In this document: positions 25,101 through 52,138 of the stretch, piece by piece
How the letters are laid out: each line of letters opens with the position of its first letter
How positions within the stretch are numbered: position 1 is the first letter of the stretch
Source: Amphiscolops sp. MND2022
Taxonomy: Eukaryota
Length of the DNA: 64,000 nt
Assembly (NCBI GenBank): GCA_964187785.1
Contig: OZ076409.1
Coordinates: 57,290,001 to 57,354,000, forward strand
Reading direction: 5' to 3'
Translations under genes and position numbers: made by a program
Notes under the pieces: model-generated
Databases searched by the model: none
What the model was told of the DNA's origin: nothing
Seen by the model: the letters and a program-made list of their open reading frames with translations, nothing else

Positions 25101-25608
25101 TTTTTTTTAAGACCAACGAACTGACAGATTTTATAAAGAGTTATAAATAGCTGAGCTGACTTCACTGCACTAACAGTAACTGCAACGCTAGCTATCACTG
25201 CTGGCACTTGGCATAGAGGTTAATTAAGCTTTTTGAGGTCTGCCAAGCAGAAGGACGTGGGTTCGAGTCCCGTCCTTGATCAAATTTTTTTGTGCAGGTT
25301 GTTTTCGGCTTTGTGAGACTTTTTTCGCAAATTTTTTTAATGTCTCCAAAGGGTCCACCCTTCATTTTTTTTCTATTTTGCATAAGAATGGATGTTCAAA
25401 ACCTCCCAAAGGGCCCCTTTTACAATTTTTCGGCACTATGCGACTTACCGGAGACCAAAAAATTTCGAAAAAAATGCAAAAAAAATTCGGATTTTTTTAA
25501 ATTTTTCCTCACGCGGGTACTGTAGAAGAGAATACTTGACACTTTGAAGTCCTTTTGCTATTTTTGAGCCTTAGATATGGCGCCGACTTGGGCCGTTCCC
25601 GGCTTGTT
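22200..25608. mobile_element. Cluster of HINE-like family A copies (-: ~22600-23287 and 24381-24987; +: 23828-24262 and 25050-25608)
   Basis: Same AGTCGGCGC / GCGCCGACT subterminal inverted motifs and 3' hairpins. Confidence 0.65.
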
Positions 25609-26630
25609 CATTTTTCATTTTCGTAAAATATGAAATTGTTGGATACAGTGCTGTTATCTTTTTCCGACAATTCCTCAAAAACCTTACTTCAAGTGATAAA
25701 CTTGAATGTGGTCTAGTGATTACTGATACCGCTTTCTATTCCACGTATATAAGGTAATTTATTTCGAATCTATCGTCAAAAATTCGTGTATAGTGCATAT
25801 TCTTCAGTTCATTGTTTCTTGTCAGTTAGGGCCCGAGGACTAGAATCTAGCCAACGTCAAACGCTCCTATCATTCCAAGTTAAACTCTACTAGCAAAATT
25901 TTCTGATGTGGCACTTACCTAAAAAGTTGAGTTATATACATTGTATCTGAAAAACGTATTGCAATAGTTCAATTAGTAAAAGTGCAAAAGTTTAGCGCTT
26001 TGCAACTGCTCTGTCCAGAAGGGGTGTTCGAATCTAACGTTGAATGTCAGCAAATTAAATATCGGAAATGTGGCAGACTTTGAGGGCAACTTCACATTTT
26101 CTCGGCAATGTGAAACTAATTAGAAGCACTATTGCTATTTTTGTCAGAAATTTCGGAACTTTTTCCTCTTCCCCCTCACACTTTTCAATATGATGTTTTT
26201 GCAATTAATTATATCTCGATTGCTTTTCCAATGAAACAGTTCAGTTTTAAATTCATGCTCAGGATGATAGTTTAGGATCAGATACAAACTTTGTTCACAC
26301 TTTTTCCCTATGTAGTTACGAATTTTTGATGAAATCAACAGCTTCCTGTTTTGAGTCATCAATGAACACTCAATACGAACATGATTATAGTCAAATTGTG
26401 TGAACAATGTTTTGTTCAAGCGGAAAACTACTCTAATAAGGTGGGGACAACAAAACAAAGGAAAAGACTTATTCGAAGAAATATTGAATGATATAGTCAA
26501 ATATAATCCTCTATGTTGAGTTTGTTTTCTTTAAAAAGTATGAGGGGGGGGGGAAGGAAAAAGAGCCGAAATTTCTCATTAAGACACTTTGTTGATTACA
26601 CTGATTGCTTCAGCATGGCTAATTAGCCTG

Positions 26631-27241
26631 ATGGGAGAAGACCAATACAATAGACCAGAGCCCAACTGATGAACGGATGCTGTCTGCAATGGTTAAAACT
26701 GAAGTACAAATAAATGTTATCACTGCTGGATCAGTCAGACCTTTGAGCACTTTTGGTAACGTTGAAAATTCACGGAAGCTACTTTCTATTCATTTCAATC
26801 TAACGATTCGTCGCAACAAATGATGTTCAAAATAAACCTTTTTGGTGAAGGAATGTGAAGTGAATGGCTGTTAACTCAGGAAGCCTCGGAAATATTCCAA
26901 AATCCGAGCACGTGACAAACCGCTGACGGTAGATCCTGGACAGTTGAAAGTTTAGCTTAATCCATTAATCGTTAAAAAAACCGGTTTAATCAGTTAACAG
27001 CCATTCACTTCACATTCCTTCACCAAAAAGGTTTATTTTGAACGAGCATTTGTTGCGACGAATCGTTAGATTGAATTGAATAGAAAGTAGCTTCCGTGAA
27101 TTTTCAACGTTACCAAAAGTGCTCAAAGGTCTGACTGATCCAGCAGTGATAACCTTTATTTGTACTTCAGTTTTTTTAACCATTGCAGACAGCATCCGTT
27201 CATCAGTTGGGCTCTGGTCTATTGTATTGGTCTTCTCCCAT
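26631..27241. repeat. Long inverted repeat (foldback/MITE-like), ~245-bp arms, ~115-bp spacer
   Basis: 26631-26876 is the near-exact reverse complement of 26992-27241. Confidence 0.9.
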
Positions 27242-27999
27242 TCGAATTTTTTGAATCGGTCACGAAATAATTAATTGGTTATTCGATTAACTGTTCCGGG
27301 CTCTACCAGAAAGTCCCTGAGACAAAATATTGTCGCGTGAAAAATAAGAAGTTGTAGAGAATACTTTGGTTTCCTTTATTGATAAAAAAGATCTGAAGTG
27401 AAGAGACGGCCATTTTTTTGCACATTTTGAATTAAATACACCAACTGTAGTATAATTGAATTCAAACAATCAATTAACAACGTGTTAGTAGTCCTTCAAT
27501 CACACAAACTTAAGCTAAAAGGTCTTTTCTGGATGCATTTTTTGACAAAATAGATCGAAAAGTGTCAAACAATGTGGTTTTCAGCAATCATTGATCACCC
27601 TGGAATCCCATTACCAACCATATATCCTTCAAACAAGTTTCAACTCCGTGGAGGCATTTTTGTAGTTAGAAAAGTTACTTTCTTTTTGCTAATGCGTGTT
27701 CAGGTGTGGGGGAAATGTTTGAAATTTTTTCAATCAAAAAAAAAGAAAATTTACAACTTGCAATTTTTGGCAAAACACAAGCGAATTGGAACTTTCAAAT
27801 TTTCATAAGTTCAAAAAAATACAACTATTACAAAATTCTGAATTTTGAATTTTTGGTCGAAGGTTTTCGCTTTTTTGAAATCTCCACTTAATTACTCCAT
27901 CAAGTATGTGCATATTTTAGTCACCGTGGGTCAGTCGGTGGTGCGTCCGCCTGGCAGACAGGAGGTCGTGGGTTCGAACCAGGGCTGGAGCCTAAAAAT

Positions 28000-28345
28000 A
28001 TTGCGCTATATCCGACTTTTTGACCTTATATCAGAACTAAATTGCGTTTTACCTAGGCAGATGTTCGACAAATAGCGCTCCCATTTGTCCCAGTACGCTA
28101 TATCCGAACTTTCAACGTTATATCTGAAGTAAAATGCGTTTTATTAAAGAGGAGGCAGAGGTTCAAAAAAGCGCTCCCATTTGTTTCAGCACGCTATATC
28201 GAAATTTTGACGTCATATCCGAATAAGATTGCGTTTTACTAAGGAGGAGGCAGAGGTTCGAATCTAGTAATTTCAATGTTTCGTTTCCTGTTGAAATCGA
28301 AAAAAAACATCCTATCTGAATTTCGACGTTATATTTGAAGTAATG
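28000..28345 (+). repeat. Three to four ~90-100 bp tandem units (CGCTATATCCGA...TTATATC.GAA..AA.TGCGTTTTA) following a tRNA-like head
   Basis: Direct repeats visible by eye. Confidence 0.6.
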
Positions 28346-28459
28346 AATATTTCGGGTGAGAATAAATGCAATAACGCCTATTAGGCCGGAACGGGTCCTT
28401 TTTTTCATGCCCTCTCCGAAGTTGTTTTCATGCTTACAAAGGTACAGGAAAGAGTAGGG

Positions 28460-29097
28460 TTTTTAGTCGGCGCTTCATGAAGTGAAACGCGACTATTATA
28501 GTGACTTTTTTTCTATCCACACGAACTGACCAAAATAGTTCTACAAAAGTTCTACAAAATATTATTGCATCAAAATGCACTTTTTGGTCTAGCGAACTGA
28601 ACCAAAAAGGTTTTTTCTGTTTTTCCCGGTAACATACCATACCGGGCGAGACCAAAGACTCCCCCCTTTCATTTTTTTCGGCACTGCGAGACTTTTTTTT
28701 CGAAAAAAATTTTCCCCAAAGGGCCCCCCTGCATTTTTTTGATGTTTTGCGACAGAATGGATGTTGAAAAAGCCCAAAGGGTCCCCCCTTTCTGTTTTTT
28801 TTCGGCATTGTGAGATTTTTTCCCGAAAATGACAATTTTTGTTTTCTTCAATTTTTTTGTTTTGCGACAGAATGGATGTTGAAAAACCTCAAAGGGTCCC
28901 CCCTTTCAGTTTTTCGGCATTGTGAGACTTTAGCGCGCCACTCGGTCCATTTTTTTGAGTATGTAATTTTTTCGAAAAAATTTTTTTCAAAAAATTTCGA
29001 TTTTCGAGTACTGTTAAAAAGTACTTGACACTTGGAAGTCTTTTTGCTATTTTTGAGCCTTGGATATGGCGCCGACTTGGGCCGGTCCCGGCTTGTT
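28460..29097 (+). mobile_element. HINE-like family A copy
   Basis: TTTTAGTCGGCGCTTCATGAAG start; GGCGCCGACTTGGGCCGGTCCCGGCTTGTT end. Confidence 0.7.
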
Positions 29098-29555
29098 ATT
29101 ATTTCTGTGATAGCAGGAATATTATTGAAACCTCATGATGTCAACTTTTTTCAGTAAAATTCTTGGCATGATACTGAATAATTCAGATATTTTGTTCGGC
29201 AGTGACTAAGCGACAGAATTAAATTTCTCAAGCTCTCGAAGACAATTCAATTCTCGTGCGATGGAACGAGCGAGTGGTAATTATGCATTCGTACGCCGAT
29301 TCATTGAGATGAAGCGAATGAGTGTAAATTTTTTGTTCGCCGAGTGCTTCGCCTGCATTTAAATGCGAATGCGAAACTTTGTCTATGCTAAGTAGTTATA
29401 TTTGTTTTAGTCCGAGATTTAAAGGCGGTATAAACTGGTACAGCGATTAATTGTGCGCTAAATAATGATCAAGCAGGAGTGTATTGGTATTCCAAATATG
29501 ATTCTTTTAATTAATGAAAGATTGAAGCAGAATAGTGTGCCCCCGAGGGTTTTTT
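29098..29555 (+). mobile_element. HINE-like family B copy 3
   Basis: Homologous to 13396-13938. Confidence 0.65.
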
Positions 29556-32163: not shown

Positions 32164-32613
32164 TGAGCTGTTAAAAATGAGTGATATTGTATTTCTTATC
32201 TCTTTTATAGAGTACATAAGAAGTCTAAGGTTCTTAACAGCAAATTCGTCTGAGGTACCAAGTTTACTGACTAGCTAGCTATTTCCAATATCCCTGAGAT
32301 CTCAGCTAAGTACTTCTTTCAGATAGAAACCGTTCTTCAGTTAATACTCTAATTTTCTTCAAGTAGACATACTCTACAAATTCGTCAATGATTACAATGT
32401 TATATTGACATGCTAACTAATCAATAGCGACAACAGTAAGAAGAGTTAGATGGGTTACTAATTATATTGTCACAAGGCATTATTAAGTTATTTTCAAATG
32501 TCATCAATCTAGTCAACTTCAGTTAACTATAAATGAAGTGAGATCTGTCTCTCTCAAGTTGGGTGACTTCGAGATATTCGAAAGTTCTTGAGGACATCTA
32601 TCATGGCATCACA
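32164..32613 (-). repeat. 3' LTR
   Basis: Direct repeat of 51687-52138 with scattered substitutions. Confidence 0.92.
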
Positions 32614-33589
32614 ATCAACTGGGAATTTTTGAAAGTTTAAACTATATATCTGCACTTTGGAAGTGTGGAGTTCTGAAGTTTTGTTTTGCATGAATTTTTG
32701 TTCTAGAAGCGTACCATACTTAAGGAGTGAGAACAACCTAAGACGATTTGACTTCTTACGTAAGTGACGTTTCAAATTGGTGCAAAATTTCAGTTTTCTT
32801 GACTGACAGTTGTGTTCAAGTTATTGATTGACAACTTGTTTACTACTTTGTGTTAATTTTTCGTTTCTGCGTATCTGCCATCGGCTCATTTGAAAAATCC
32901 ATTGTACATCAACATGAGTTATTCTGAATTGAAAACTTTTCATGTTGAAGAAAGATTCTACGAAGTTGTCAATGAGTTGTGAACAGTGGCGGGTGTTTGA
33001 ACCAAAAGTGAAGAAGTTTTGAAAAGTCTAGGTTCGAAGTGAAGTTCATTTTCAACAAAAGTGACTAGTGAACGGATGCAAAGAGTTTGTTCTTGTTCCA
33101 CAGTTGAAAAGTTTCAAAAGTTTGAAAAGTTGTTGTACCAAATGATAATGAGAAAAATTGTTAGTTTTTCATTCACATTTATGGGGTGAAAATTTTTCAA
33201 GTGGAAATTTTGAAAGAATTAGGAAATTCAATTGCATGGGCGAAGAAGAAAATTTTAGTGTACTGTAAAAAAAACCTTAGAAAACTTTTGTTCCATAAGG
33301 ACTTGTGTACTGTAAAAGAAAGATGGATAATAGTTGTATTATAAAGTGGGTATTATAAAAGAGCGTATATAAGAGTATACACAGACAATTGTTGCGGTTA
33401 GAGAGTAATTATAGGAGGGTATTATTACGATTATAAAGCACTAATTATGGGGGGTTATGCGAAAATAAGTATGACTACAAGATTACAATAGACATCGATT
33501 ATAAGAATACAATAAATATACAAGTTTATTTTGAGTTAGTTAATGTTAATACAGTCTTTGAGTTAGTTAATGGTCGTACAGTCGAGTTT

Positions 33590-34553
33590 TAAAGTTTGAA
33601 ACATTCATCTGCGTTGATCGACGAGTACCAGTTGGCAGTTGAAAGTGAAGAGAAGGTAGATGTGGAGTTGACAAAGTCCAGTTGAAGTTGAGTCAGCGAA
33701 GTTGATGCGGCAAGGATCAGTTGGAGTGGGTGCTGCAAAAACCAGTTGAAGAAGTGAGACGAAGGGTGTTGTGGACCAATCGATGAGGAGTTGAAATTGC
33801 TGCAACGCAGTGATGAAAGCTTGCTGTGTGGTGTGGAGGAAGAGCAGTGAAGGTTTTCACTCAATAACATTCATTTGGAGAAGATGAATAGTTTAAAATG
33901 TTGAGATGAAGATCAGTGAAGAGAATCATTTTTTAAGGTTAGTATAGAGGGTGCTGTCGCGGAGCATATGTTTTGTGGCGTTTAGGATCGTAAACCTCTA
34001 TTTTTTGAGTGTATCCAAATTCAAGGAGTACTTTATTAAAAGCTTCACAAGCTTCGTCTATGGCTACTCTAAAGTAGTTATCTTTTGTTGTGAACGAGGA
34101 GTTGAGAACAAAAACCGCGTTTGAAGCAGTTTCGCAGATAGCAACGTTAGGGCCATCGAGGTGAAGACGAGCGTACTATTCTTCTTTTTTTATTTTGCAT
34201 ACATTATAGAGCACTTTCAGAAATGAGCGTTTCGTAGAAGGTGTAATTTGATCATTGTTTATCTCGAGTGAAAGTTTAAAGGCCATCGTGTGAAATATGG
34301 CTGCTTTAAGACTGTGGGCTGTAGTAGAAAGACTTAATTTTGTTTGATATGTTTTAGAACCTTGCGGAGCCATTTTGTGAAGATCGATGAGGAAGAGTTG
34401 ATGTTCGAGCAGAAAAATTTTGCGAGAAGTTCTGATAATATGGCTTAACGAATGATGGTTTGAAGAAGGCAAGGAAGAAGGAGGAAGAAAAATAGATGTT
34501 TCTGAAACAAAGAAGTTGTGAAAAAGTCAAGAATGTTCAACTTATGTTCCATA
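33590..34553 (-). pseudogene. Accessory ORFs 5 (~34553-33939) and 6 (~33930-33590) of the LTR element, unknown function
   Basis: Long reading frames on the element sense strand broken by isolated stops (e.g. ...KIKKEE*YARLHLDGPNVAICETASNAVFVLNSSF...HPLY*). Confidence 0.45.
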
Positions 34554-34852: not shown

Positions 34853-36143
34853 TTAATGAACATTAGCTGAGTTAAAAAGAGTAGTCATGGATTCAAGAGC
34901 AGACTGTATTGCTTGTGAGGATTGTGTTATGCGTTGTGAGTCTAAGTCAAGTGATTGCAGGAGTTTGTGTGTTCTGTCATAGCAATGTATTTTATGTGTG
35001 AGAGTGGTGATGAGAGTGTCAGAGGAATTTCGTTTATACGGGTCCAATAGGTGTGTTATATCTTTAATAGTACGACTATTGAGAACTGATGAAAGTTTTT
35101 CAGGAGTATTTCGAATTGGTGAGCTATGTTCAATAGGAGGTGGTTTATGTTTTGCTTTTTGTTCTGGTTGTACCATGTAAGAAAAAAATTTGGCAGAAAT
35201 GAGGAGTAATTCGTTGTATGAATGCGATTGTTTAGCGAGAGCAGTATAGTATGATTTGTCTTTATCATCTAGTGGACAAGAAGCAAAGTGTTCGATTACT
35301 GTAAGAGGTTTGGCAATTCGTGTGGGAATATTGCAAGGCAACAGAAAATCATCGAAATGAATGAGATTTTCTTGAGGTACAATAAGTGGTCGTGATGTGT
35401 CATTGTAAGGAAATAGACAGAAGTATTGTTTGATAGGGTCATAGTTACGAAGGTAGCCGGTTATGCGAGAGTGGTTTATGGTATATAAATGTGTCATATT
35501 GAATGGAGAACAATATTTGTAGTTGACAAAAAGATAGTTCTGTGGGTTTGTGTGTTGTAAAAATTTAGTGTATGTTTGATGATGAGAAGCTTTTTGTGAC
35601 AGTGAGAGAAAGGAAGGATCAGATTCGTCTGTTTTCGAATCATAAATAGATGGGCGTAAAAAATTGAACTGAAGAAAGAAAATTTTAACGCCATTGTCGA
35701 GCCAATATTGGTATGGAGCCATGATTTTTGAAATGGATGTGAAAAAATCTTGATTTTTATCGTTTAGACGAAATGTGTAGTCTGTAGGATGCATATAGAG
35801 AGAAGTTAGTTGTGCTTTGAACGTGAAATTATCTTGTGATAGAATTGGGATCAAGTGATCATCACGAGTTGTAGAAAGTCATGGTTGAGAAGGTAGTTTA
35901 GGTGAGGAAAGAAAGACAGGATCTTTCATTCTTCGGAGGCGGTGGTACTTCATGTGTACTATCAGGAGGAGTGTGAACTTTTGTGGGTGTAGTATGTTCG
36001 ATTTGTTCAACTTCTTCCGCAGGATGAGCATTTACTTGGTCAATATTTTCAAGGAAGAGAACAGGAGAGTCGTTAAAAAGAGGTTGTGTGGTGAGATCAG
36101 AGGATGATGGTTCTAGTTAAAGATCAAGGTGTGCTTGTGTCAT
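34853..36143 (-). pseudogene. Accessory ORF4 downstream of env, unknown function
   Basis: 333-codon open stretch 35854-34853, extendable through lesions to an ATG at 36143 preceded by a TCTTTCAG acceptor. Confidence 0.6.
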
Positions 36144-36352: not shown

Positions 36353-39341
36353 CTAGAAAGATGGCGGAGGAAAAGGATAATTTGTTTTAGAATAAACTTT
36401 GGTAGGAGTTTCCGTACCATTTTTGACAGAAGTGTTATCAGCTCAATTGTCATGTCGAGTGGTTAAATTGTCATGTTGATTTGGATAATTGTCATGTTGA
36501 GTTGCATTGGTAGTAGAATAATTAGGTAGAGGTGGATTTTGTTGTTGTGAGGAAGGAAGTATAGGGATTCGATAATTAATTGTGGGTTGAGAAAGTGGTG
36601 ATCGTTTTTGGAAATAATTTAAATCTTGTCAAACGAAATTTGTTGGGACGTTTTGTATAGAAAGGTGAATGGGAAGTAATACCATTTGTTTCGTTAATTG
36701 AAGGTGTTTGATTGTCAGAAAAAGGATTTAAAGTGTCAGAAAAGTTATCTTGTGATTTAGAGGTTGGAAATGCTAACCTGGGCTTTTTTCGATGTGTATG
36801 ATTTTGGTCATTCACCATTTCAGGTGTGAGAATATTAAAGAAGCCATGTGCTATTGAACTAAATAAAGTAATGTTTTGTTTAAGAATATATTTAATTGCT
36901 GACGAAGTCAATGTGCATTGCAGTCCAGCTAAGTAAGTTTTTTTCCACAATAGTCAACTTCATTATGAGCGCCTTTTAGAAAAAAGCAAAAACCCCAGAG
37001 AGATTCGAACCTGCAGCCTCCCGATTGCACGGCATAAGTGTTGACCACTGTGCCATAGGGACGTCATTGAACAAAGTTGAACTGTTGAATATATACGCAT
37101 GCGATTAAAATAATATATTTACGCATATTAAAATAATCGATGTCTTCGTCATGTGTTGCGAAGCACCGCTTCGCCACTGTGTGGAAATTGTTTTGTATAT
37201 TTTTACAATGAGTGAGAGAGTTGCTTGTACGAAAAGAAATGTAGAAAAATGTATTCCACATTGAGTTAAAATACAACATGGTTATCCGAACAATGAAATG
37301 AAAGCATCTGAAAACCATGTAGGTGTAAAAAGAGCAGTAAGATTTATAAGTTTGTCATGTAACCCAATACGTAATGTATTGTTTGGATTTTCATGAGGAG
37401 ACTTTGTTTCATAGTTAGGTGTATTAGAAGAAATAAAGGAGTAACGAAGAGTTTTTTCCAAAGTTGAAGTGTGGAATCAGAATGTTTCGAAAATAGAATT
37501 CTCTTCCAAAATTGATGAAGTTCAGCATTAGAATATATGCCAGCATCTTGAGCTGTGAAAGTGTTAGGACGTATTGTAGTTTTATTTGAGAAGGTGTGAA
37601 CATTAATGGTGGTTTTCGTTTAATAGGTTCTGGTCCAAGATTGTAAAAATCTTGATCATCAGAATCAGGATCTAGTTCATTAATGTTCTTTGGAATATTA
37701 TCACATGCGAAAGAAGTTGCATAGTCATAAGTTTGTCTTGTAATTGGATCAACGTACATAAGAGTATTTTGAAGTGTATAGGTATACGATCAAAGCATCG
37801 GTCAGCTTTGTATAAAGGAGAATGAAAGTGTGGACAATCATAGAGCCAAGCAGTTGAACCTTCAACATATAAGAAGTTACTTCTGTTTCCTGTTAAAAGG
37901 AAGCCAGCAAGTTTAGGATTTTGAACTGTCATTGCTAGTATTGTAAGGAGCTGGTTTCATTCCAATTCGCAGACTGTTTGAAGAGTATTAAGTTCTTGTA
38001 CTGTAATTGAACGAAAAACATGGTTAATAGTGTAATCATTTTTTGTAATTATATGGGCGTCATAATCTATTGGTGCAAAGTTGTTTGAAACATTTGTTGC
38101 AGGAAAAATAATTTTGTTATTAGAGTTGTCTAGTACATTTTAACCAGAAATATATTCGTTAATCATAAGATTGGGGATTTGGTTGTCCTGTATGCTTATT
38201 AAAACCATCTGTATAGGTTTCAAAGAGGTCAGAATATTTTGTAGAATAAAGGGGGTCAGGTTTACCACAGAAAGTTTGAGCATTTGGAAATACTTCAAAA
38301 CGTGAAAGACTTGGGTTATTTGGGTTTTGTGTATGTGGAGCTTGTACATTAGGGTGTATTGTACCTTTAATACCAGAAGTTGCCTCAGGTTTTGTTGAGT
38401 GTGAAGAGTGTACAAAACAATCAGTTTCAATCCAATAGCGATCTTGAAGTTTTGTCATTCGTCCAATAAAGTCTTGTAGTGTAAAAATTAAACAAAAATC
38501 ATCACTAAACCAAACAAGGGTGAAAGAAGTTTTGGTAGTTGGTTTGCAAAAAACATCTGCAAAATTGCAGGGTAAGGTATGTCCATCTATTATCATAACG
38601 TTTTCTGTATCGTCATATGTAAGTTCAAGTTCAGAAACTTCTAGTCGCCAACTGACTAGATTTACTTCGTATCGATGATGAGCGGGACAGTTGTGATAAG
38701 GGTTTCTATTTAGGTCATCTATCCAATCTTCGTCACCAGGCATAAAGGTGAAGACCTGTGTACATTTTGTTCAATTTGTATACTGATTTATATACTGTAA
38801 AAGGGGTCTGAAATTGTTCTAAACGTTCGTGAAAGTAGTGGTCTTCTAAAAGTGTAAAAGTTTTGTTGTAGTGTAAATTGTTTGATATTTTTTTATTTGT
38901 ACCATTTAGATGTCTAATAATATTCTTGCATTCTAACGGATCAAGGGTAACAAGAAGTGGCATAGTGTTATGGTTCCATACAGTTCTATCAACACGTCGA
39001 TATTTGACTGAGCCTTGAAAACAAGTTTTTTTTCCTTTTGGCATAGGCGACACATTGGTAGGCTTTAATGCGTTTAGCTTTTGCTCTGACATAGACTCGG
39101 GCTTCAACACTGGCGTGTTGTGTGTTTGAAGGAGCTTCTGTACATTGTTTCACATTGAGTAATTTAAATTGTCTTAAATTATATTACTTGGCGCAATCAT
39201 AATGGGAAACCATAAGGTTTGTAGTATTTGGATCGTCTGATGGGAGCTAGTCGTCTGTATCTGTTGATGATATAGATACAGAAGTTGTAGAAGTTATTAG
39301 GTATGAATAGAGTAATATATTAGTTGTATAGAGGAATACAT
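36353..39341 (-). pseudogene. env: env-like glycoprotein, probably class III fusion type (chuvirus G / herpes gB-like)
   Basis: Hydrophobic leader; VSHYDC..YNLRQFKLLNVKQC; VTLDPLECKN; TVCELE.NQLLTILAM.VQNPKLAGFLL; AWLYDC; RCFDRIPI..YVDPITRQ; C-terminal hydrophobic anchor and cytoplasmic tail. Confidence 0.7.
36898..37183 (+). mobile_element. 286-bp Helitron2/HINE-like insertion (family C) interrupting env; carries a tRNA-like unit on the minus strand (~37062-36990)
   Basis: 5' TGACGAAGTCA vs 3' TGTCTTCGTCA inverted motif; perfect hairpin GCGAAGC-ACC-GCTTCGC; removing it rejoins env as KTIS|IKYIL; no TSD. Confidence 0.65.
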
Positions 39342-39346
39342 AAAGT

Positions 39347-42300
39347 CTAAAATGAAGTTGTGTATTTAGGTCCAGAATAGGGGTCGTAAAACACGATTTT
39401 GCCATATGTCAAAAAGGGAATATTAGGATCTCGTTCAAAATCTATGTGTACACTTTCAAAAAGAGCAGGAGTAGTATTGTGTTCTATTTTAGCAACGTGA
39501 AATACTGGATGCGGGTTGAAACCTTGAAATGTGACTTTAACTTCAAACTTTATTTCTAGATTTGGATTGAGAAGTCATTTAAGTTCTGTTTCTTTTCTTT
39601 CGTGTGAAAGCAAATTGTTATTTGCAATAAAGCGTTCTGTGAGGATTGGAAAACGGGGATCGTGTGATGGATCGTATATAGTAGTTCCGTCAACTCGAAT
39701 GGGGTAATCTGCAAAATTAGGAGTTGGAGGTCTAGAGTGTTCTGCAGTATAATATTCAGGTCTTCTAATATGTGCAGGTACAGGAGTAGGTATTAAAACT
39801 TCAGAAAAAAAGTTTCCTGAAAGGAAAGCAGTTTGAGCGTCCGATGATAGTAATGAAGCGGTATCTAGACCAAATGTAAAATATGATTAGGGATCAAATT
39901 CCGAAGGGAGCGTTTCGGAAGTTAGAGGTTGAGCGTGTTGTCTTGCAAGTCGTAGAGCAGAATTACCTAAGAGCAGAAAAATTAGGTGTTGAAGTGTCTG
40001 TACTAAGTCGACGTGAAGGGAGGTTTCTGAGGTTATATCTATGATGTGGGACAAAAAGTGAACTTGTGGATTCTTGTTACGGTATGTATTCAGAAGTATT
40101 GTCTAAAAGGTTACATAGTGATGTAGACGGTTTGCAAAGTGGTTTCAGTGGCGGTTATAGTTTTGAAGAGGTTGTACTGATTTCTGATGGCAATTGTAAT
40201 GGAGGTTATTGTGTGTATTCAGTATCGGGAATATGTACAAGATTGAGTTGAGGTTGAAGTCTACGAGTTTTAATATCGGTAGAATGTTTGTAATTTACGT
40301 TCAACAGATGGTTTGGTATGTGTACTAAAGGAGTATTACTGGGTGATGTTTGAGAACGGGAAGTAATAGGAATTTCGGTTATTGGTGCTCGGCTTGTAAT
40401 AGATGAAGATGATACAGAAGATGTGTCAGTGTCAGTGATTAGTGATCTTGTTCTTTTACAAGGTGGTAGAGGAGTTACATTGCGAGTTTGGGATGTAGTA
40501 GTGATTTGAGATTCAGTATTAGAAGATAGACTTGGAGCTGAAGGAGATGTATCAGAAGAAGAATCCAGGATTATAGTGTATACTTGAAATGTCTTCACCT
40601 AGGGTATGTTCAGTTTCAAGTTTCGATCATTTTCGGTCGACTAGTTTTCATTGAGTTAGAAGAGTGAATGGTTATTTGTAGAGTTTTGAAGGTGGTATAT
40701 AGAGTCTGTAATCCATTTGTGGTTGACGTCTCAGAGTGTAATGAGTTTTGGTAGTTCTGTCTATTGGAGAAGGAAGTAAATTAGATTGGTCTTGGGATAA
40801 GTGTCGGGATATGTCAATAGAGACGTCAGTCTGAGGAGTATTACTTATCTATTTGAAAGGTGAGTTGTCTTAGAGTTTGTTAGGTGAGTTGTCATTTGAG
40901 GAAGGAGTTGGACATTCGTAATTTGATGTATTTAATGGTGTCGTAGGTTTTTGAAGTGATTCATCATCAGAAGTTGATTCGTCGGAATTAAAAGGGGGAG
41001 AGTCACTATTTGCATATTTAATAGGTTTTGGAATGTGAAATTGAGTGGAGTCTGAGAAACGCATGAAACTACGCAAATGTGGGTACAAAAGTTGGTTCTT
41101 CTGGGTAGTAAGGGATTGAGTGGTTTCTGTGAACGTGTCCTGTGGAGCCATCTTGTGAAAGAAGTTCATAGGTGACGTCAGATAATCTATCAAGAATTTT
41201 GTATGATCCTATCCGAAGCGGTTTTAGTTTACCAGAGTATTGAACGTGAGAGAAGTTTCGTTTTAAAACAAATGTACCAAAAGGGAGTGGTTTACCTTCG
41301 TGGTAAGTTTTTGTAATATATGCATGTGAGGTAATTTTTTGAGACTGTTTTCATATACTGTAGAATATATTTGTAACAGCAGTCTCTACAGCAAGAAACC
41401 ATTGTGGAATGGGTTTTGACAAAGTTCTATAGAAGAAAGGGTTCAAATCTGTTTTGTCATAATGGGAGTGTTCTGGAAGATGAGAACAATATGTAGAGAT
41501 ACATGTTTTAGAAGTATTACGGTTGAGGTTCAAGTCAAAGGTAAGAGGAATTCTGGGTAGTGTGTGAAAGACAATTTCATGAGAAGAAACATTGAGTTCT
41601 GAAAGTGGTTGTGAATTATGTTCATAAGCATACATGTGAACTATGAAAGCCCAACCTTTAGGAGTGTCGTGGAGAAACATTCGAAGGTGTGTGCCAAGAT
41701 TTCTGGGTTGTACTTCTACAAGACCATTTGTCCAAGGAGAATAAGCTGTTCTGGGAGAGTGTTTAATTTCCAAAGGCGTACCAAGATGTGCCATTTCTTT
41801 ATTAGCATATTCTGAACCTCGATCAGTAACAAGATATATGAGTGGTCCAAATTTAATGATCCAATGATGTAACAGAGTTTTTATAGCAGTTTTGGCGTTA
41901 TTTGATTTGATTGGTATTGTAACCACAAAGAGTCTGAAGGCGTCAATTATGACATGAATGTAAGATTTGTTGTGTGAAGGGGGATTGATAGGTCCTTTTG
42001 TATCCATAGCAATACGGCAGTTGAAGATGGAGCATGTTCTGAAAAAAATTGTGTTGGAGCAGTTTGGATTTTCATATTGAAGTGATTGTTCCGTTGACAT
42101 TCTTTAGAGTCATGGATGAAAATTGAGAGCCATTTTTCAAGGAATGGGATGTAGTAATATTGAGAAAATGTATTGTATGTGATTTTGATTTTTTTGTGAG
42201 AGTGGTCATGGAGTTTATTGAAGACTGTTCGAAATATGCGAAATGGAAGACAGATTCGGATTGTATCACGTATGATAATTGGAGAAGAGGTTTGATTTGT

Positions 42301-45300
42301 TGCAGGAGAATTCGCATTTGTTGTGTAAAAGCTAATGAGATTTGTGGAGTTTTCTCTGGATAGTTGTGAAAATCGCTTGTAATATGCATGTAAAAAAGGA
42401 GTGCCAGTGATGAGGAGATTAAGAAGTTCTGGCTTGTCATTACGAGTTAACCAAGAATATACAGTTCGAAGAACTGGGTCTTGGGATTGTTGTTGTTGAA
42501 GAGTTTTGAGGTCTAATGAATAATCGTCAGGGAGAAAGAAACCTTGAAAATACTTTTTGCATTTGAAAAAGGATGTATCATAGAATGGTATTATTTGTGA
42601 ACAATGGGTGGTAGGGCGAGAATGTGATAGTACAATTATTGCTGATGCAGATGGTGGACATTGGTGTTTTTATATTTGAGTAACTTTCAGTTTTATCATG
42701 TAAAGTGTTATCTGAAGTTAAAGATTAGTCTTGTTTTGGAATTTTGGTATATATATGTTCTTCATCATTACTTCTAATATCAGTATCATTGAGTAAAAGA
42801 GATTGTTGATGAAGTGATTTGTTGTCCTTTTTGACAGGTGCCTTAAATTTTGTTTGAAATGTAGTTACAGATTTGAATGAAAAGGAGTTTAAGGGTTTGA
42901 CGATAATATCTTTTCCCTTGTTATTTATTCGTATCGAAAATTGGTCTGTTCCATAATCAGCAAGTATTGGATGGGAGTCATTTTTTTGATGTGGTAAAAC
43001 TTCATGTTCAATTAAGTAATGTTCGGGTTCGAGTGTACCATCTTGTAATATAGCAAAATCGATTTGTTGTGGAAGTTGTTTGTGTTTCAATTGGTTAAGT
43101 TGAAGTTCAGCTTTCGCAAAAGAATGACTCAACATGTCGGTTTTGAAAACTTTGTTAATTGCATTTGAGCTCTATAAAAACGTGGACCGAGGTTACTTTT
43201 TTTGTAAAGCAATGTGGTTTGTGATCAGTGAAGACTTGTATTGGATGTGGGGAACCAATAATAAGAAAACTGTATATCTGAAAAGCGTGTACTATACCAA
43301 GGAGTTCACGATCGAGTGTAGAAAGTTTTTGTTCTTGTGGGTTCAATATACGAGAGTTGTAAGATATAACTTTCGTTTTATTTTCTTCGTTCAATTGGAA
43401 AAGAACAGCACCTATTCCAATAAGTGAAGTGTCTACTGTAATGAAAAATGGATGTTTTTTATTTGGTTTGGTAAGTTCTGTGTCAGAAGTGAGAGACGTT
43501 TTGAGATTTTGGAAAAGCGTTTCGTGTTCATCTGTCCATTTCCATGGGGTATTTTCATGTAAAAGATCGTAAAATGGTTTGAGATTAAGGTGTAGTTTTT
43601 CAATAATTTTTGTGTAGAAGTTAAGTGCACCAATGAAACTCATGAGAGCGACTTTTCCAGTAGAAGAAGGAATTTTGTGGATACCTGCACATTTTCTCAA
43701 GTTTCCTTTAGGTATAATAATGAGAGGGTTTAGATAAGTTGTACCATAAACTGGTTTGTCTTGTGGTGATGGACCAATTTGTTTTAAAATGTTATATTTT
43801 TCAAGTTCTTCAAGAAGAGCATTGAGTTAATCAGGGTAATGAATTGGTACTTTGGAAGGACGTTAGTTAATAAGTTGTGCATTGTGTTTCAATCGAATTC
43901 GAAAGGGAGTTGCAATTTTGCCAATATCATTTTTATGTGTTGCATAACATGTTTTGTATTTAAGTAGTAAGTTGCAAAGTGTAATGTACTCGGTATCGGT
44001 AAGGTCAGAGAACTGAAAGTTTACTTTGGTAATAAATTTGAGCTTTTCCGTAGTATATGATAGTGATGGGAAAACTTGATGTTTGGATGTATGTGAAGTA
44101 GGTTGTACGTTATATAGAGAAGTGTTTGTCTGGTTATATAGAATCATTGTTTGGTTGTGTAGTTTGTTGTGGTTGGAGTTCTTGAGTTGTAAGCGTATTT
44201 GATGTATATAGTGTAAAGGTATTGTCCTGATTTGTATAATGAATGGTGTCATTAGGAGTTTGATCATTTACGTGAGTTTGTGTTATGTTGTGAACTGGAT
44301 ATTGTATAATATTTGAACCATCAGTTATTGTAATACTTTGTGGATTATTCGTGGTTTCCTCAGAGAACTCTGTTACATTTTGTATTGTAGCTGTTTCAAA
44401 AGGGTCTGGCATGTTGTTGAAGTGTGTAGTTTCTGGGATTTGAAATATTTCTGTAGTGTCATCTTGATTGGTAAAAAAAAATTCTGTCCAGTATCATGTT
44501 GTAATATATGAGGGATATGTTCATCAGGCAAAGGTTCAGAAGTGAAAATAGGATTAGTATAAGGACGATTATCCGATGTTTGAGAATGTTTTATAATGAA
44601 ATTAGTATTATAATTGGTTAGTTCAAAATAAGTTATGTTAAATGAAAGAGGATCTCTATAGTAACAATGATTTTTGTATTTTTAATTATGAATGGTATCA
44701 ATTCAGTTTCTGGTAATGCCTTTGGGAAGTTAATGTAGGCATTCTGGTCTTGTTGTTTCCATATTAATTGGTAATTAAACCGGAAGAATTACAACAGGAT
44801 GTGTGAAAAGACTTTTTTTGTGGTATTGTATCTTCATTAGGTATAATGTTTTGGAAGAATCTGTATTGAAATTGTTTAATTTGTGCTTTATCTTGTTGTA
44901 ATCGATGATGAGGTTTATTGTGTCGTGTTATTGTGGTTTCGAGATCTGGTACTTCAAAATATTCATGTTTTCCTTTAAGACTTTCTAGGTGAGAAAGAAG
45001 ATTTACTGGTGTTTCTAGATTTTCATTACGTTCTATAAGTTCATGTATGTAATGAAAACTTCTTGTATAGATAAAGCTATATTTTGTGGATGGATTGTTC
45101 TATAATATGTTCCTGTATTTAAAACTTGAACTGGGTTTAAAATGATAGCGTGTACTATACCAAGGAGTTCACGATCGATTGTAGAAAGTTTTTGTTCTTG
45201 TGGGGTCAATATACGAGAGTTGTAAGATAAAACTTTCGTTTTATTTTCTTCATTCAATTGGAAAAGAACAGCACCTAATCCAATAAGTGAAGTGTCTACT

Positions 45301-47470
45301 GTAATGAAAAATGGATGTTTTGTATTTGGCATGGTAAGTTCTGTGTCAGAAGTGAGAGACGTTTTGAGATTTTGGAAAAGCGTTTCGTGTTCATCTGTCC
45401 ATTTCCATGGGGTATTTTCATGTAAAAGATCGTAAATTGGTTTGAGATTAATGTGTAGTTTTTCAATAAGTTTTGTGAAGAAGTTAAGTGCACCAATGAA
45501 ACTCATGAGAGCGACTTTTCCAGTAGAAGAAGGAATTTTGTGGATAGCTGCAATTTTTGAGCGATAAGGTTTAATTGTATTGTAACCAATTTCATGTCCA
45601 ACGAATTTAACCTTAAGAAGCATGAAAAAAGATTTTTCTGGGGCCAACTTGAGGTTGTTTTTTGTACTGATAATTTGGAGTTGTTCTATAAGTTGAAACA
45701 TGTGTTCTTTAGAGTTTGATAAAAGTAAAATATCGTTAATATGAACTAGAGCAAGACCTTGTTCGATAAGAGTTTTGAAGAAGGTTGACATTTGTTTTGT
45801 GAAAAAATTTGGAAGTCTTTCGAGACCAAAAAAGCCTCGTACGAAAGCGAAGAATTTATCACCAGATGAGAAACTTGTAAGTTTTATGGTTTCTTCGTCA
45901 AGGGGTGTTTGTGCATAGACGTACTTGAGGTCAATTGCACATTTATACTTTTTATTTGCGCGTGCTAATTGGGGAGCAAGATGTTCAATACGCCATGATT
46001 CATCAGATTGTTCTGTGTTTGAGTTAAGATGTCGAGCGTCTAATACACATTTTCTCAAGTCTCCTTCAGGTATAATAATGAGAGGGTTTAGATAAGTTGT
46101 ACCATAAACTGGTTTGTCTTGTGGTGATGGACCAATTTGTTTTATAATGTTATATTTTTCAAGTTCTTCAAGAAGAGCATTAAGTTAATCAGGGTAATGA
46201 ATTGGTACTTTGGAAGGACGTTAGTTAATAAGTTGTGCATTGTGTTTTAATCGAATTCGAAAGGGAGTTGCAATTTTGCCAACATCATTTTTATGTGTTG
46301 CATAACATGTTTTGTATTTAAGTAGTAAGTTGCAAAGTGTAATGTACTCGGTATCGGTAAGGTCAGAGAACTGAAAGTTTACTTTGGTAATAAATTTGAG
46401 CTTTTCCGTAGTATATGGTAGTGATGGGAAAACTCAATGTTTGGATGTATGTGAAGTAGGTTGTACGTTATATAGAGAAGTGTTTGTCGGTATATCATGA
46501 TGTGTCATGTACAATTGGTGTAGCGAAAAATGATGGAAAAGGGTTGTATCATCTTTATATTGTGAGGAGTATTTAGTTTGTCGAATAATTTCTGTAATTT
46601 CAAAATGGATTGTATGGGTGACATTATGTATTAAAGTGTTAATATCAGTAACATGATAATATTTGGGTTTTTAGTTTGTAACTGGAATTTCAATATATCC
46701 AATGTGTCCTGTAGGTAGTGTTGCAATATGATTTGTAGATTTTTGTATAAGAGTTGATCATGTGTCTGGTTTGTCTTCTGTGAAAATTTCTATAAAGTTG
46801 AATGTTGTACGAAATTTAGTAGAAAACTGTGTGGAACTGTAGGAACGAGTTGATTTTGTGGTGTAGTTTGAAAACGTAAATAATAGTAGTTCTTTATTGG
46901 GAAGTGTGCAATTTTGGAAGAGTTGGGTTTCAAACTTATTTGTGTTTTAGAACTAGTTCTACAAATGTAAGAAAAGTATGGGTAATCTTTTGATAAATAC
47001 GATGAAAATTTTGTATAGTTAGGATATGCTGTTGAATTGTGTTTAAATTGTAATGTAAAGTCTTGTATGTTTATATTTTGTATGTTTTCCTCAAAGAAGG
47101 GTGTTCCAAGAATATTGTATGTTATATCTGCTGTTTCAAACGGTATTGTAAATTGACGACAATCGTCTTCAATCGTTGTATTTAAGGTGATAGTAACATA
47201 GTGTAGGATGGGTACTTCAGTTTGGTTTGCGACAGTTAATGTTTTTGAAGGGTTGGGTGTACTGTTTTAATTAATATTTAGGAGTCTTGCAATAGTATTA
47301 TATTTGGGATAGTTTAATACCGATATAGAAGCACCACTATCTAAAAGAAATGATTTTTCTAATCTGGATGGATTTCCACGTTGAATCTGAGTTGATGGTG
47401 TATGGGTATAAAAAGAATAGAACCAACTTGTAGGTGTTACGGCATTTGCCATCTCAGTTGGGTGATACAT
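39347..47470 (-). pseudogene. pol: pol: protease, RT, RNase H (partly duplicated), integrase and long C-terminal extension
   Basis: LLDSGASISVL (PR); CVLDARHLN, AIDL, degenerate HINDILL (RT); FITVDTSLIGLGAVLFQ and ELLGIVHA (RH); AMDTKGP, IIDAF, LVTDRGSEY, SPWTNGLVE and a GPY-like motif (IN). Confidence 0.88.
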
Positions 47471-47479
47471 GTGTACTTC

Positions 47480-50400
47480 AAATTTAAATGGGTCTGTTTG
47501 ATGTTGTGATTGTATTGTATCAAGTTCATTTCTTGTATTTGAATGTGAACGTGATCTAGAATATCTAGAATCTCGTGGTCTTTAAGGTTGTCTATAGGAC
47601 GATGTGTATCTTGTAAAATTGTTGTTATTTCTTGAATAGGAACGTGATCTATATCGATGACGAGAGTCTTGTCTATAAGGAGATCTATAAGAAGATCTAT
47701 AAGGAGAACAGTATGATCGGGAATCTCTTCTGTAGTTGTCATATCGTGATCGAGTGTTTTGTGGAGTAGTATTTTTGTCATAGCTGAATCGCTCTCTTGA
47801 TGTAGAGCGATATCTGTTTTGTGAGTTTGTTTTTGTTATAAAAATTAGTTCGTGACGTACTTCTGTTTCTTTAGCGTTTATCATGTCTTTCTGTTCTATC
47901 GTTAGAGGGCGAACCAAAGTACTGAACAAATGATTTTTGAGGAGATTTCGATCGAGCGTAAGCATCTCGTTTATCTTCATATTCTCGTTGTTTTTTGAAA
48001 CAGGCAGAGATGGAGTGGTTTGTTCTATGACAGTAAGAACAATATTTTTTATAGGCAGGTTTATTATTATTATTTGGGTCGCGAGGTTGTGTAAACATAA
48101 GTTGTTCTTGTTGAGAAGAGTCAAGAGTTTGAGTTTGTAATTGATTTGTAATGTTCAGTTCTAGTGCAAGATCATGTGTTCTAGTTTTATCATTCGCGAT
48201 GTCTTCGGCATCAAAGAGTTTTACGAGTGTATGAAAGGGAAGAGAGGGTTCTAAAACAGTAGAGGTGTGTTTCACTTGTCGTTTGTTATCAAAGTCTTCA
48301 AGGTTTTGAGGAAGTCTTTTTGTGAATATTTCGTTACATTTCAAATTAATTGTAGATGCATTCTCTTTACACCAGCCTTTTTCAACTAGCTGTGCAAAAT
48401 GACGTACTGTTTCGTTATCTTTTTTAGTAAGGTTGAGGGCTTCAACTTGAGCATAGTAGGCGTATTTCTGTGATGAAAATTGCTTGTTAAAAGCTTGTAC
48501 AAAGGCGTGCCAATCTTGTTTAGAAGTGTCGTTTAAACGGATATACCAGCTTAGAGCTGTACCTGTTAAAGAGCATTGTATGAAAGCCATTCTTCGAGCG
48601 TGCCAAAATATATATTCGTGGTCAGACGTAAGTTGTAAACCCAAGGAGAATGTTACACGTGCTTCAATATGTTGTAAGTATTCTTCAGGTGTATAGTTAT
48701 GATTTTGGCCATCAAAGGGTTTAATAGGTTCAGAAATTGATGTAGAAGAATTTATGTATGTTGGTTGTGAAATTGTAGGTTGAGATATTGTAGATGGGGG
48801 AATTGTATTGTATGTAGGTATATTGGAGGTGTTAGACGGTATATTTGGTGGATTTATAACAGGTTGTCAATATGTGGCATTTATGTAAGGATCAGTTCTA
48901 ATAGTTGTGGATGGAGGATTGGGTATCTGAATTTGAGTGTTATGTAATCTTCGTAATGTATTTGATTGTGGAGATGTGGAAGAAAGATTTAGAGTTTTGG
49001 GCTCGTTGTTGTTTGTTATAGTTGGTTGTATGTTATTAGGGTTTGTACTAATGAGACTATACGATAAGGGGTTAGTTGGGATAGTTTGTAATGGAGGTCT
49101 AGAAAGATATCTAGAGGTAGTATAGTTGGGCAACGGATTAGACTGGAGAAGAATTTTTTGTTAATGCAGGTTGCAGATTTCGTGTTTGAGTAGTTAGAGC
49201 TGGGGTCTATGCTAACGTTGGTACTTCTGGTTGTGTTGTAGGAGTTGTTGTTTGAAATTGTACAGTATTTGTGACTTGAGTATTGGAAGATCCTTGTTGA
49301 GTAGAATTATGTGGAGTAGTTAGAGGAGAATATTGTGAAGGAGGAGGAGGAGGATCATTGTTTGGTTGTGTAGTTTGTTGTGGTTGGAGTTCTTGAGTTG
49401 TAAGCGTATTTGATGTATATAGTGTAGAGGTATTGTCCTGATTTGTATAATGAATGGTGTCATTAGGATTTTGATCATTTACGTGAGTTTGTAGTATGTT
49501 GTGAACTGGATTTTGTATAATATTTGAACCATCAGTTATTGTAATACTTTGTGGAATTTTCGTGGTTTCCTCAGAGAACTCTGATACATTTTGTGTTGTA
49601 GCTGTTTCAGAAGGGTCTGGCATGTTGTTGAAGTGTGTAGTTTCTGGGATTTGAAATAATTCTGTAGTGTCATCTTGATTGGTAAAAAAATAATCTGTCC
49701 AGTATCATGTTGTGATATATGAGGGTTATGTTCATCAGCCAAAGATTCAGAAGTGAAATTAGGATTAGTATGAGGACGATTATCTGATGTGTGAGAATGT
49801 TTTATAATGAAACTAGTATTATAATTGATTAGTTCAAAATAAGTTTTGTTAAATGAAAGAGGATCTCTATAGTAACAATATTTTTTGTATTTTTAATTAT
49901 GAATGGTAGTAATTCAGTTTCTGGTAATGCCTTTGGGAAGTTAATGTAGGCATTCTGGTCTTGTTGTTCCCATATTAATTGGTAATTAAATCGGAAGAAT
50001 TACAACAGGATGTGTGAAAAGACTTTTTTGTGGTATTGTATCTTCATTAGGTATAATGTTTTTAAAGAATCTGTATTGAAATTGTTTAATTTGTGCTTTA
50101 TCTTGTTGTAATCAATGATGAGGTTTATTATGTCGTGTAATTGTGGTTTCGAGATCTGGTACTTCAAAATATTCATGTTTTCCTTTAAGACTTTCTAGGT
50201 GAGAAAGAAGATTTACTGGTGTTTCTAGATTTTCATTACGTTCTACAAGTTCTTGTATGAAATGAAAACTTCTTGTATAGATAAAGCTATATTTTGTGGA
50301 TGGATTGTTCTTTAATATGTTCCTGTATTTATATCTTGATCTGGGTTTAAAATGATTTGGAATGGATTTTGGGAACGTAAAGGTTCTAGTGTTTTGTATG

Positions 50401-50958
50401 GGAAGTAATATAAATAAGAGTCACAATGTTCTCTTACCAAAGGAATAGTATCTATATGATGAGGTTCTGTTTCAAATGAGAGTGGGTTGGTGTACTGAAA
50501 TATGATGTTATTGAGAAATAGTATTACATCTCGACGTTGGTAAGTAGATAGTAAAATTGGAAGAGGAAGCATTGTAGTATTATATGTTTAGTTAGTAAAA
50601 TTGGTTTGCCATAAAGGGTATATTTAGTGTATAATAAGAAATTTTGTATTAAATTTGGAGTTATATGGTAAGATTTGATCTACAAAAACAATTTGGAGGA
50701 ATATTGTAAGTATTGTACAAAGAAGAGAGAGGAGTTTATTCTGAATGTAAGGTATAAGTGTGGAAAAAGTATGGTATATACTGAGAAGTCCAAAAAGAGG
50801 TAGTATTATACTTGTAAACATAAAGAAGAGAGTTATATTCTAAAACTTAGGTATGAAAAGTACTAAAAATTTATCAAAGAAAAGAGCAATACCAGCAAGG
50901 AATGCAAAAGCGAACCAAAAAAACTGATAAACTTAACTATATCATCAGCTGAAGGCAT
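47480..50958 (-). pseudogene. gag: gag with a long N-terminal extension (hydrophobic segments, T/Q/P-rich spacer, capsid, CCHC knuckle, RS-rich tail)
   Basis: FIQCSLTGTALSWY..WHAFVQAF (retrotransposon gag); CSYCHRTNHSISAC zinc knuckle; RSRS/SPYR repeats. Confidence 0.8.
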
Positions 50959-51668: not shown

Positions 51669-51684
51669 TTTCGTGATCGCACCA
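51669..51684 (-). promoter_or_regulatory. Primer binding site TGGTGCGATCACG
   Basis: TGG 2 nt inside the 5' LTR end; complementary to a tRNA ending ...GCACCA (Gly-type acceptor possible, unverified). Confidence 0.75.
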
Positions 51685-51686
51685 AT

Positions 51687-52138
51687 TGAGCTGTTAAAAA
51701 TGTGTTCAATTGTATTTCGTATTTCTTTTATAGAGTACATAAGAAGTCTTAGATTCTTAACAACAAATTTGTCTGAGGTACCAAGTTTACTGACTAGCTA
51801 GCTATTTCCAATATCTCTGAGATCTCAGCTAAGTACTTCTTTCAGATAGAAACCGTTCTTCAGTTATTACTCTATTTTTCTCCAAGTAGATTCACTCTAC
51901 AAATTCGTCAAGGATTACAATTAGTTAAATTGACATGCTAATTAATCAATAGCGACAACGGTAAAAAGAGTTAGATGGGTTACTAATTATTTTGTCACAA
52001 GGCATTATTAAGTTATCTTCAAATGTCATCAATCTAGTCAACTTCAGTTAACTATAAATGAAGTGAGATCTGTCTCTCTAAAGTTGGGTGACTTCGAGAT
52101 ATTCGAAAGTTCTTGAGGACATGTATCATGGCATCACA
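51687..52138 (-). repeat. 5' LTR
   Basis: Direct repeat of 32164-32613, adjacent to the PBS. Confidence 0.92.

Follow-up and report, generated by a model that had tools for sequence, protein, structure and literature searches.

We describe an envelope-bearing Ty3/gypsy long terminal repeat (LTR) retroelement found on the minus strand of a 64,000-nucleotide stretch of the Amphiscolops sp. MND2022 assembly GCA_964187785.1 (contig OZ076409.1, positions 57,290,001 to 57,354,000; hereafter the window, with positions counted from its first letter). The copy in the window is old, broken and dead, and the family to which it belongs is abundant. Taken as a whole, our analyses make it likely that the family is a gypsy lineage with a predicted class III envelope (env) for enveloped transfer between host cells, and that env is reached by leaky scanning behind an open reading frame, ORF2, that starts at CUG.

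The envelope is almost certainly a membrane fusogen of class III, the type of herpesvirus glycoprotein B (gB) and chuvirus glycoprotein G, as predicted by profile and structure comparisons. The original prediction had proposed this class from a set of motifs (YDC..LLNVKQC, LDPLECK, CELE..LLTILAM..P.LAGFLL, WLYDC, CFDRIPI and YVDPIT, followed by a transmembrane (TM) segment and tail). All of them were recovered on the window's minus strand, spread over three frames and ending at the predicted stop at 36353. The start, however, had been placed at 39341, and the start conserved across copies lies 64 nt upstream, at 39405. In an unbroken copy from elsewhere in the genome (L045, 901 amino acids from its Met), the sole Pfam match above the cut-off was Monjiviricetes_fusion (PF24664; 84.8 bits, E 5e-24). 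One of five env fragments scanned from the window itself matched this family weakly and below the cut-off (E 0.0095). Hydropathy peaks at residue 27 and at residues 715-735, leaving a tail of about 165 residues, and no furin-type R-x-K/R-R site was found (all on copy C4). Across 30 full-length relatives, fourteen cysteines are conserved in 92-100% of the rows that have no gap there, and the window copy retains all 14 in its ectodomain despite its decay.

An AlphaFold2 model of residues 45-740, built as a monomer from a natural unbroken copy with an alignment of 60 natural relatives, reached a predicted local distance difference test score (pLDDT) of 74.7 and a predicted template modelling score of 0.60, with the TM helix present. 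Such a model, searched with Foldseek, had been proposed as a check on the envelope class, and the outcome agreed with the proposal. Herpesvirus gB accounted for all 31 PDB matches listed (best E 1.5e-13), and xinmo- and chu-like G proteins came out on top in the BFVD search (E 1e-26, 8-15% identity). When 48,161 chains were compared using VIA-align, the top seven rows were gB or rhabdovirus G (Z 8.8-5.7), the leaders being gB (Z 8.8, 393 residues aligned, root-mean-square deviation (rmsd) 13.6), domain IV of pseudorabies virus gB (Z 6.4, rmsd 3.6) and Chandipura G (Z 6.0). An F-type envelope like that of baculoviruses was ruled out by the class III assignment together with the lack of an R-x-K/R-R site.

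Several points weigh against this assignment. Global superposition of the model was poor, with template modelling scores of 0.23-0.26 to gB and 0.34-0.42 to the top chu-like G, and the top gB rows in VIA-align had an rmsd of 13-15 Å at Z below 9. The model mixes conformations, and 126 of its residues have a pLDDT below 50. PDB sequence searches with env and with an env profile returned no fusogen, and the gappy alignment of relatives did not show conserved aromatic fusion-loop residues. The model does contain two long hairpins, candidate domain I fusion loops, with low-confidence tips that bear F, Y or W. We infer that the low superposition scores may reflect a flexible monomer modelled in a mixed conformation.

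Judged from its polymerase sequence, the element is Ty3/gypsy, as had been proposed from the order protease, reverse transcriptase (RT), RNase H and integrase. In young copies, gag and these four domains lie in one 2,734-codon frame, with the protease motif LLDSGAS near residue 1107. The Pfam families follow the order RVT_1, RT_RNaseH, Integrase_H2C2, rve and a sub-cut-off SH3_Tf2-1, a gypsy-type set with no BEL/Pao families, and the best PDB relative is Ty3 Gag-Pol (E 6e-52). The N-terminal extension of gag matched no Pfam family. Since BEL/Pao elements are described as carrying chuvirus-like G (PMC7642597) and the RT is divergent from named gypsy proteins, we considered whether the element could belong to BEL/Pao, like Anakin, or to Troyka. 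This is highly improbable: the Pfam set and the Ty3 match speak against BEL/Pao, whereas TG...CA LTR ends and a 4-bp target-site duplication (TSD; 11 of 12 evaluable copies, 14 examined) contrast with the CG...CG ends and 3 bp of Troyka. Both memberships were excluded on these grounds.

The position of env was foreseen only in part. It does lie 3′ of pol, but not directly, as the 410-codon ORF2 separates the two and env begins 1.3-1.7 kb behind pol. ORF2 has no Met in 24 of 26 rows. The aligned copies become conserved abruptly at a CTG; immediately before it lie gaps that shift the frame, and no conserved AG adjoins it. Of 31 copies compared, 30 have CTG at this codon, and every one carries A at -3 and G at +4; these copies include six of a sister family (the 952 family), at saturated synonymous distance (dS). 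CTG makes up 0-4% of Leu codons and occurs only once in the ORF2 of each family's reference copy. A pattern open to every Leu codon, and at -3 to A, C or G, had 1,451 matches in the genome, and the first 100 listed all read ATC or ACC, then CTG G. From these sequence features, ORF2 probably starts at a CUG in strong Kozak context and env would then be reached by leaky scanning, a proposal in which we have reasonable though not high confidence.

The stretch to be scanned is poor in AUGs. From the CTG to the env AUG, the six 952-family copies all lack them (6.3 on average in shuffles, P 0.001). The reference copy has two, against a shuffle average of 5.8 (P 0.046), and each of these meets a stop within two codons; in the other copies of its family the number is 0-4. 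In pol and env, out-of-frame AUGs are more numerous than in shuffles. A frameshift or readthrough from pol into ORF2 was rejected, because stops and a spacer of variable length intervene and put ORF2 out of reach of a simple frameshift. We also observed an AUG-UAA start-stop 88 nt after the ORF2 CUG (window position ~40480) in 24 of 25 family copies; it is absent from the 952 family and may tune env translation. In one natural copy, seen once, a local deletion fuses ORF2 and env into one 1,288-codon frame.

Some observations count against a CUG start. In the genome sample, some synonymous sites that end in T close to the CTG vary hardly more than the CTG itself; within-family invariance alone is thus weak, and the match between families carries more weight. 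BLASTP does not align the ORF2 N-termini of the two families, and their CTG sites are taken as homologous because they agree in position and have an identical context of 9 nt. There is also an alternative in which ORF2 is the second exon of a spliced protein with an upstream AUG, env has its own spliced message, and the conserved ATCCTGGAT serves as a signal in RNA or DNA instead of a start. All 15 aligned copies have an AG some 90 nt before the CTG, which is a candidate splice acceptor by sequence; ATCCTGGAT is nearly palindromic; and errantivirus env is usually expressed from spliced RNA. Yet no conserved AG directly precedes the point where conservation begins, and the frame-shifting gaps fall between the upstream AG and the CTG. 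About 29 of the 100 copies listed have ACC-CTG-G, a form in which the palindrome is lost but the Kozak purine stays, and a separate env message would leave the AUG depletion unexplained. As for splice donors, many conserved GTs are present in the leader, none of which could be singled out. We regard the spliced alternative as rather unlikely, and a bicistronic RNA with a leaky CUG start and scanning to env appears to be the simplest reading.

The family is very abundant and inserted recently. A genome search with a 203-residue env fragment from the window gave 6,936 first-look candidates, of which 150 were scored. Non-self matches were 80-85% identical to the fragment, and about 84 of the 150 (hand count) lie in open frames of at least 900 codons, which provides the intact copies that the original prediction had suggested looking for. 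A degenerate pattern for one 10-residue env motif had 1,894 exact matches in the genome, and the control had none. Full-length copies, a non-random sample picked for long env frames, were 17.3-18.2 kb long with LTRs 97.9-100% identical; recent insertion is concluded from this identity and from the 4-bp TSDs. Several near-identical intact copies are present in the genome.

At the primer-binding site (PBS), TGG and a further 8 nt match host tRNA-Arg(TCG). This match requires a 2-nt bulge, which weighs against it, and the query pattern was derived from the PBS, one of its two matches being a tRNA. A search with a PBS 10-mer was uninformative. A tandem array of 17 tRNA genes, 16 of them called Arg(TCG), with a spacing of ~174 bp, was observed at locus L065. 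No polypurine tract was found before the 3′ LTR, where 12 of 12 evaluable copies have AAATTCCC(G/A)GTTGAT, which is not purine-rich. A canonical tract is likewise missing from the window (32614-32630), from all family copies and from the 952 family, with a CCC(G/A)G motif kept instead; the distant 821 family has a G-rich tract at this place. Head-to-tail tandem copies of a 952-family element with a common LTR were also seen (loci L127-L128).

The window copy spans 19,975 bp between LTRs of 452 and 450 bp, in which 424 of 450 aligned positions are identical, and it stands out as a block of strong GC skew. Full-length copies have the order LTR, PBS, uA, uB, gag-pol, ORF2, env, ORF4, ORF5, LTR. 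The corresponding features of the window are as follows.

51687..52138, minus strand: 5′ LTR, 452 bp, TG...CA; a 4-bp target-site duplication, AGAA, flanks the element.
51672..51684, minus strand: primer-binding site, partial match to the 3′ end of host tRNA-Arg(TCG), 2-nt bulge after TGG.
50836..50958, minus strand: uA, small single-TM ORF before gag, frame broken; 3′ end inferred from other copies (40 amino acids there).
50624..50821, minus strand: uB, small hydrophobic ORF before gag, 65 codons open; 77-79 amino acids in most other copies.
40681..50572, minus strand: gag-pol, gag with an N-terminal extension of ~640 amino acids, then protease, RT, RNase H and integrase; broken and rearranged internally.
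43284..45146, minus strand: internal duplications of gag/pol pieces, 96-98% identical to 49351-50356, 46046-46488 and 45147-45557.
39347..40568, minus strand: ORF2, no AUG, ~410 codons, rich in S/T/P, C-terminal domain conserved; CUG at 40568 as the likely start; overlap with the env start; frame broken.
36353..39405, minus strand: env, predicted class III (gB/chuvirus-G type), signal peptide, 14-Cys ectodomain, TM anchor and ~165-residue tail; broken.
36901..37186, minus strand: insertion right after the env TM segment, with a tRNA-like stretch and a T-run; resembles a short interspersed element by eye.
34853..36143, minus strand: ORF4, 447 amino acids, no known family; broken.
33942..34373, minus strand: ORF5, ~150 amino acids, no known family; broken.
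32164..32613, minus strand: 3′ LTR, 450 bp; no canonical polypurine tract before it.

The window env is 78.3% identical in DNA to the unbroken copy L045 and ~80% identical in amino acids to unbroken natural copies. It has eight frame-breaking indels, one of them the ~290-bp insertion, and six internal in-register stops. The tRNA-like stretch of the insertion was called by neither ARAGORN nor Rfam; Rfam gave no matches over the whole element, and ARAGORN none on the window.

Beside gag-pol-env, five further frames show signs of protein-level selection, and their substitution patterns indicate that these accessory ORFs very probably encode real proteins. The ratio of nonsynonymous to synonymous change (dN/dS; pairwise Nei-Gojobori, all pairs against one reference copy) was 0.05-0.17 for ORF2, 0.02-0.28 for ORF4 and 0-0.14 for ORF5 within the family, where env gave 0.04-0.15. 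Against the 952 sister family, it was 0.23-0.42 for env, ORF2 and ORF4, at dS of at least 1.5. The common reference makes the pairs non-independent, and the copies were those with open env, both of which temper these values. uA (40 amino acids) runs from a Met in nine of ten copies and uB (mostly 77-79 amino acids) in all ten. Changes at first, second and third codon positions number 13/6/22 in uA and 39/18/71 in uB, and overlapping frames differ; the third-position bias is a sign of selection on the proteins. Both have a TM-like segment (Kyte-Doolittle hydropathy, KD19, 2.7-2.9), lack the MGxxxS/T myristoylation motif and the polybasic patch after the TM segment that mark sORF2/FAST-like proteins, and have similar small hydrophobic counterparts of 48, 37 and 78 amino acids in the 952 family. 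ORF2, ORF4 and ORF5 matched no Pfam family. For ORF4 there was no usable Atlas match, none of the 120 homologues listed, of 277, was named (all of these 63-99% identical), and the AlphaFold2 model was unusable (pLDDT 38.6). The Atlas matches of the ORF2 C-terminus, at 0.81 or lower, are leads only. A 44-codon frame between env and ORF4 showed some third-position bias, but it has no start and is gapped, and it was not counted.

The original prediction also raised the possibility that a gypsy element had independently captured this type of envelope. The pairing itself is already described across metazoans: Chary & Hayashi (eLife 2026, PMC13524379; cited here, like the other papers, from parts of the publication) report 1,512 gypsy elements that carry env, among which the gB type occurs as often as the F type; the gB-type set was seeded with glycoproteins from mosquito BEL/Pao elements that resemble those of Chuviridae. 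As a kind, the window family thus belongs to an already described class. The RT is 39-49% identical to sister relatives and at most 34% to other full-length matches. In a quick, midpoint-rooted RT-RNase H tree of 37 rows (two of 39 were dropped for length), five env-bearing families of this genome and 16 relatives formed one group with a Shimodaira-Hasegawa-like approximate likelihood ratio test (SH-aLRT) value of 100, which a long stem sets off from the named proteins of arthropods and nematodes. The split of (927, 952) from (821, (718, 752)) is the same in this tree, in a quick env tree and in the pairwise identities. Because the env and RT trees agree across five families, env has long been carried by the same pol clade, and on these trees the env-pol pairing is old within the RT clade and would not be a recent acquisition.

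A capture specific to this gypsy lineage, with a chu-like virus as the source of G, would fit the closest env folds, which are xinmo- and chu-like G, and an RT clade that stands far from named gypsy proteins on its well-supported long stem. However, env is only 8-15% identical to viral G compared with 26-54% among the env of sister families, the five-family agreement of the trees does not favor it, and the pairing appears ancient and widespread in the survey (PMC13524379). The proposal of an independent capture did not gain support, and we consider it unlikely, though such an event may have taken place in the distant past.

At least six gypsy families with class III env were observed in the genome, with open frames of ~712, 718/731, 752, 821, 927 and 938/952 codons. 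In four sister families a TRAF/MATH ORF lies directly 3′ of env, identified by Pfam (E 8e-23 to 4e-10) at L056:3135-3905, L058:3117-4163, L062:2980-3798 and L064:3097-4119. From its sequence, this ORF is possibly a captured immune-signalling mimic. The linker between protease and RT in the 718/731/752 families (L061:736-1914) looks by eye like what we take to be a macro domain, on a motif presumed characteristic of it; Pfam gave no such match.

Based on these observations, we propose the following course of expression. The genomic RNA would give Gag-Pol from one frame and be primed by tRNA-Arg. A shorter RNA would start in the spacer between pol and ORF2, through cis- or trans-splicing or an internal start, and would be read first at the CUG; ribosomes that bypass it would cross the AUG-poor 1.2-1.35 kb and start env. 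Class III fusogens act through the loops of domain I and need no furin cleavage, and Env trimers would fuse membranes in this manner. Particles bearing Env could then pass from soma to germ line, as in Drosophila errantiviruses, and the remaining ORFs would serve as accessory proteins.

Infection from cell to cell through Env is the part of this scheme that we favor only slightly. The selection seen on env signifies a function for the element and is not proof that particles infect cells. Env could instead be kept for an intracellular or host-facing role, such as budding at internal membranes, cell-cell fusion or receptor interference, with spread taking place inside germ cells. A high copy number requires no infection step, and the transmission mode of gB-type elements is given as unknown in the survey (PMC13524379). 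Nevertheless, a signal peptide-ectodomain-TM layout, 14 conserved cysteines, dN/dS of ~0.1 alongside pol, and a young, expanding family would best fit an entry protein, and a purely internal role therefore seems unlikely to us.

Other features of the window lie on either side of the element. A Sec16-like host gene occupies 8690-12861 (plus strand) as two long overlapping frames (TPR_Sec16, E 1e-29); it is very divergent, with two database matches only. The first coding exon of a Na/Ca exchanger (Na_Ca_ex) lies at 56691-57590 (plus strand). It is followed at 58571-63835 (plus strand) by a 901-bp tandem repeat with a Cys-bearing frame, the copies of which are 100% identical where compared, and then by a decayed gypsy pol of another lineage. 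Dispersed repeats of ~60-nt units in both orientations are abundant at 900-8200, 22700-29400 and 52700-54900, and inverted-repeat elements were found at 26631-27241 and 55376-55553.

The family shares many features with the gB-type errantiviruses of the survey (PMC13524379), as far as these are described there: a gypsy pol, the order GAG-POL-ENV, an env with signal peptide, TM segment and predicted class III fold but no conserved furin site, and multiple copies with near-identical LTRs. The candidate PBS, partly matching tRNA-Arg, would be of the tRNA-Arg(UCG) type, which is among those listed there. It differs from them in its length of 17-18 kb, five further selected ORFs, an AUG-less ORF2 and ~1,900 env motif matches in one genome. 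The distance of env from pol also exceeds the 1-kb gap allowed by the survey's prefilter. The main text of the survey makes no mention of accessory ORFs, small ORFs (sORFs), splicing, CUG or TRAF, and it describes how gB-type gypsy elements express and use env as unknown (PMC13524379).

Parallels exist in other systems, again as described in the parts of the papers cited. Anakin, a mosquito BEL/Pao element (Dezordi et al. 2020, PMC7642597), has the same envelope class on an LTR retroelement, with a BEL/Pao pol in contrast to the gypsy pol seen here. The sORF1 and sORF2 of the Drosophila MDG1 group (Voichek et al., PMC11952523) are likewise two small selected ORFs before gag, one of them a TM protein; however, that group has no env, and its MGxxxS/T motif and polybasic patch are the features missing from uA and uB. 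In the vpu-env mRNA of HIV-1 (PMC2657110), an accessory ORF also overlaps the env start and env is reached by leaky scanning, as we infer for the window family. HIV-1 vpu has a weak AUG, whereas the window family would combine a CUG in strong context with its 1.2-1.35-kb AUG-poor stretch, and the proteins of the two systems are not related to each other. Bdelloid LTR retrotransposons (Rodriguez et al. 2017, PMC5408684) are similarly gypsy-like with extra genes near the 3′ end, but their ORF3s encode an F-like env, a GDSL esterase or a DEDDy exonuclease, in contrast to the class III env and ORFs of unknown type here and the TRAF/MATH ORFs of the sisters. The literature searched, which left most subscription journals and Repbase outside, yielded no description of an ORF that starts at CUG and precedes env, nor of gypsy elements with TRAF genes.

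To the known kind of gypsy element with gB-type env, the family adds a complex gene set, together with a testable proposed non-AUG mechanism. The prediction is precise and cheap: ORF2 would start with CUG at a named codon, and leaky scanning would lead on to env. Xenacoelomorpha does not appear in the survey's phylum list, and acoels are not mentioned in seven of its supplements (PMC13524379); if the host is an acoel, its phylum would be new for this class. Acoel genomes are reported to be LTR-rich, with trans-splicing in ~30% of genes in one species (PMC9911081).

Young copies of the family are numerous in this one genome, and its five selected accessory ORFs have no known relatives. We tentatively raise the possibility, doubtful as it stands, that it belongs to a deep-branching and currently infectious clade of 'complex' invertebrate endogenous retroviruses, perhaps in a host phylum unsampled by the survey, with a lentivirus-like toolkit evolved independently: a CUG-started accessory protein translated together with a class III Env, small membrane proteins encoded ahead of gag, two novel post-env proteins and, in sisters, a captured, immune-tuning TRAF domain. 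Elements of this type can escape screens that demand AUG starts or a short distance from pol to env. The findings suggest that retrotransposons, too, have given rise to accessory gene sets with a complexity like that seen in lentiviruses.

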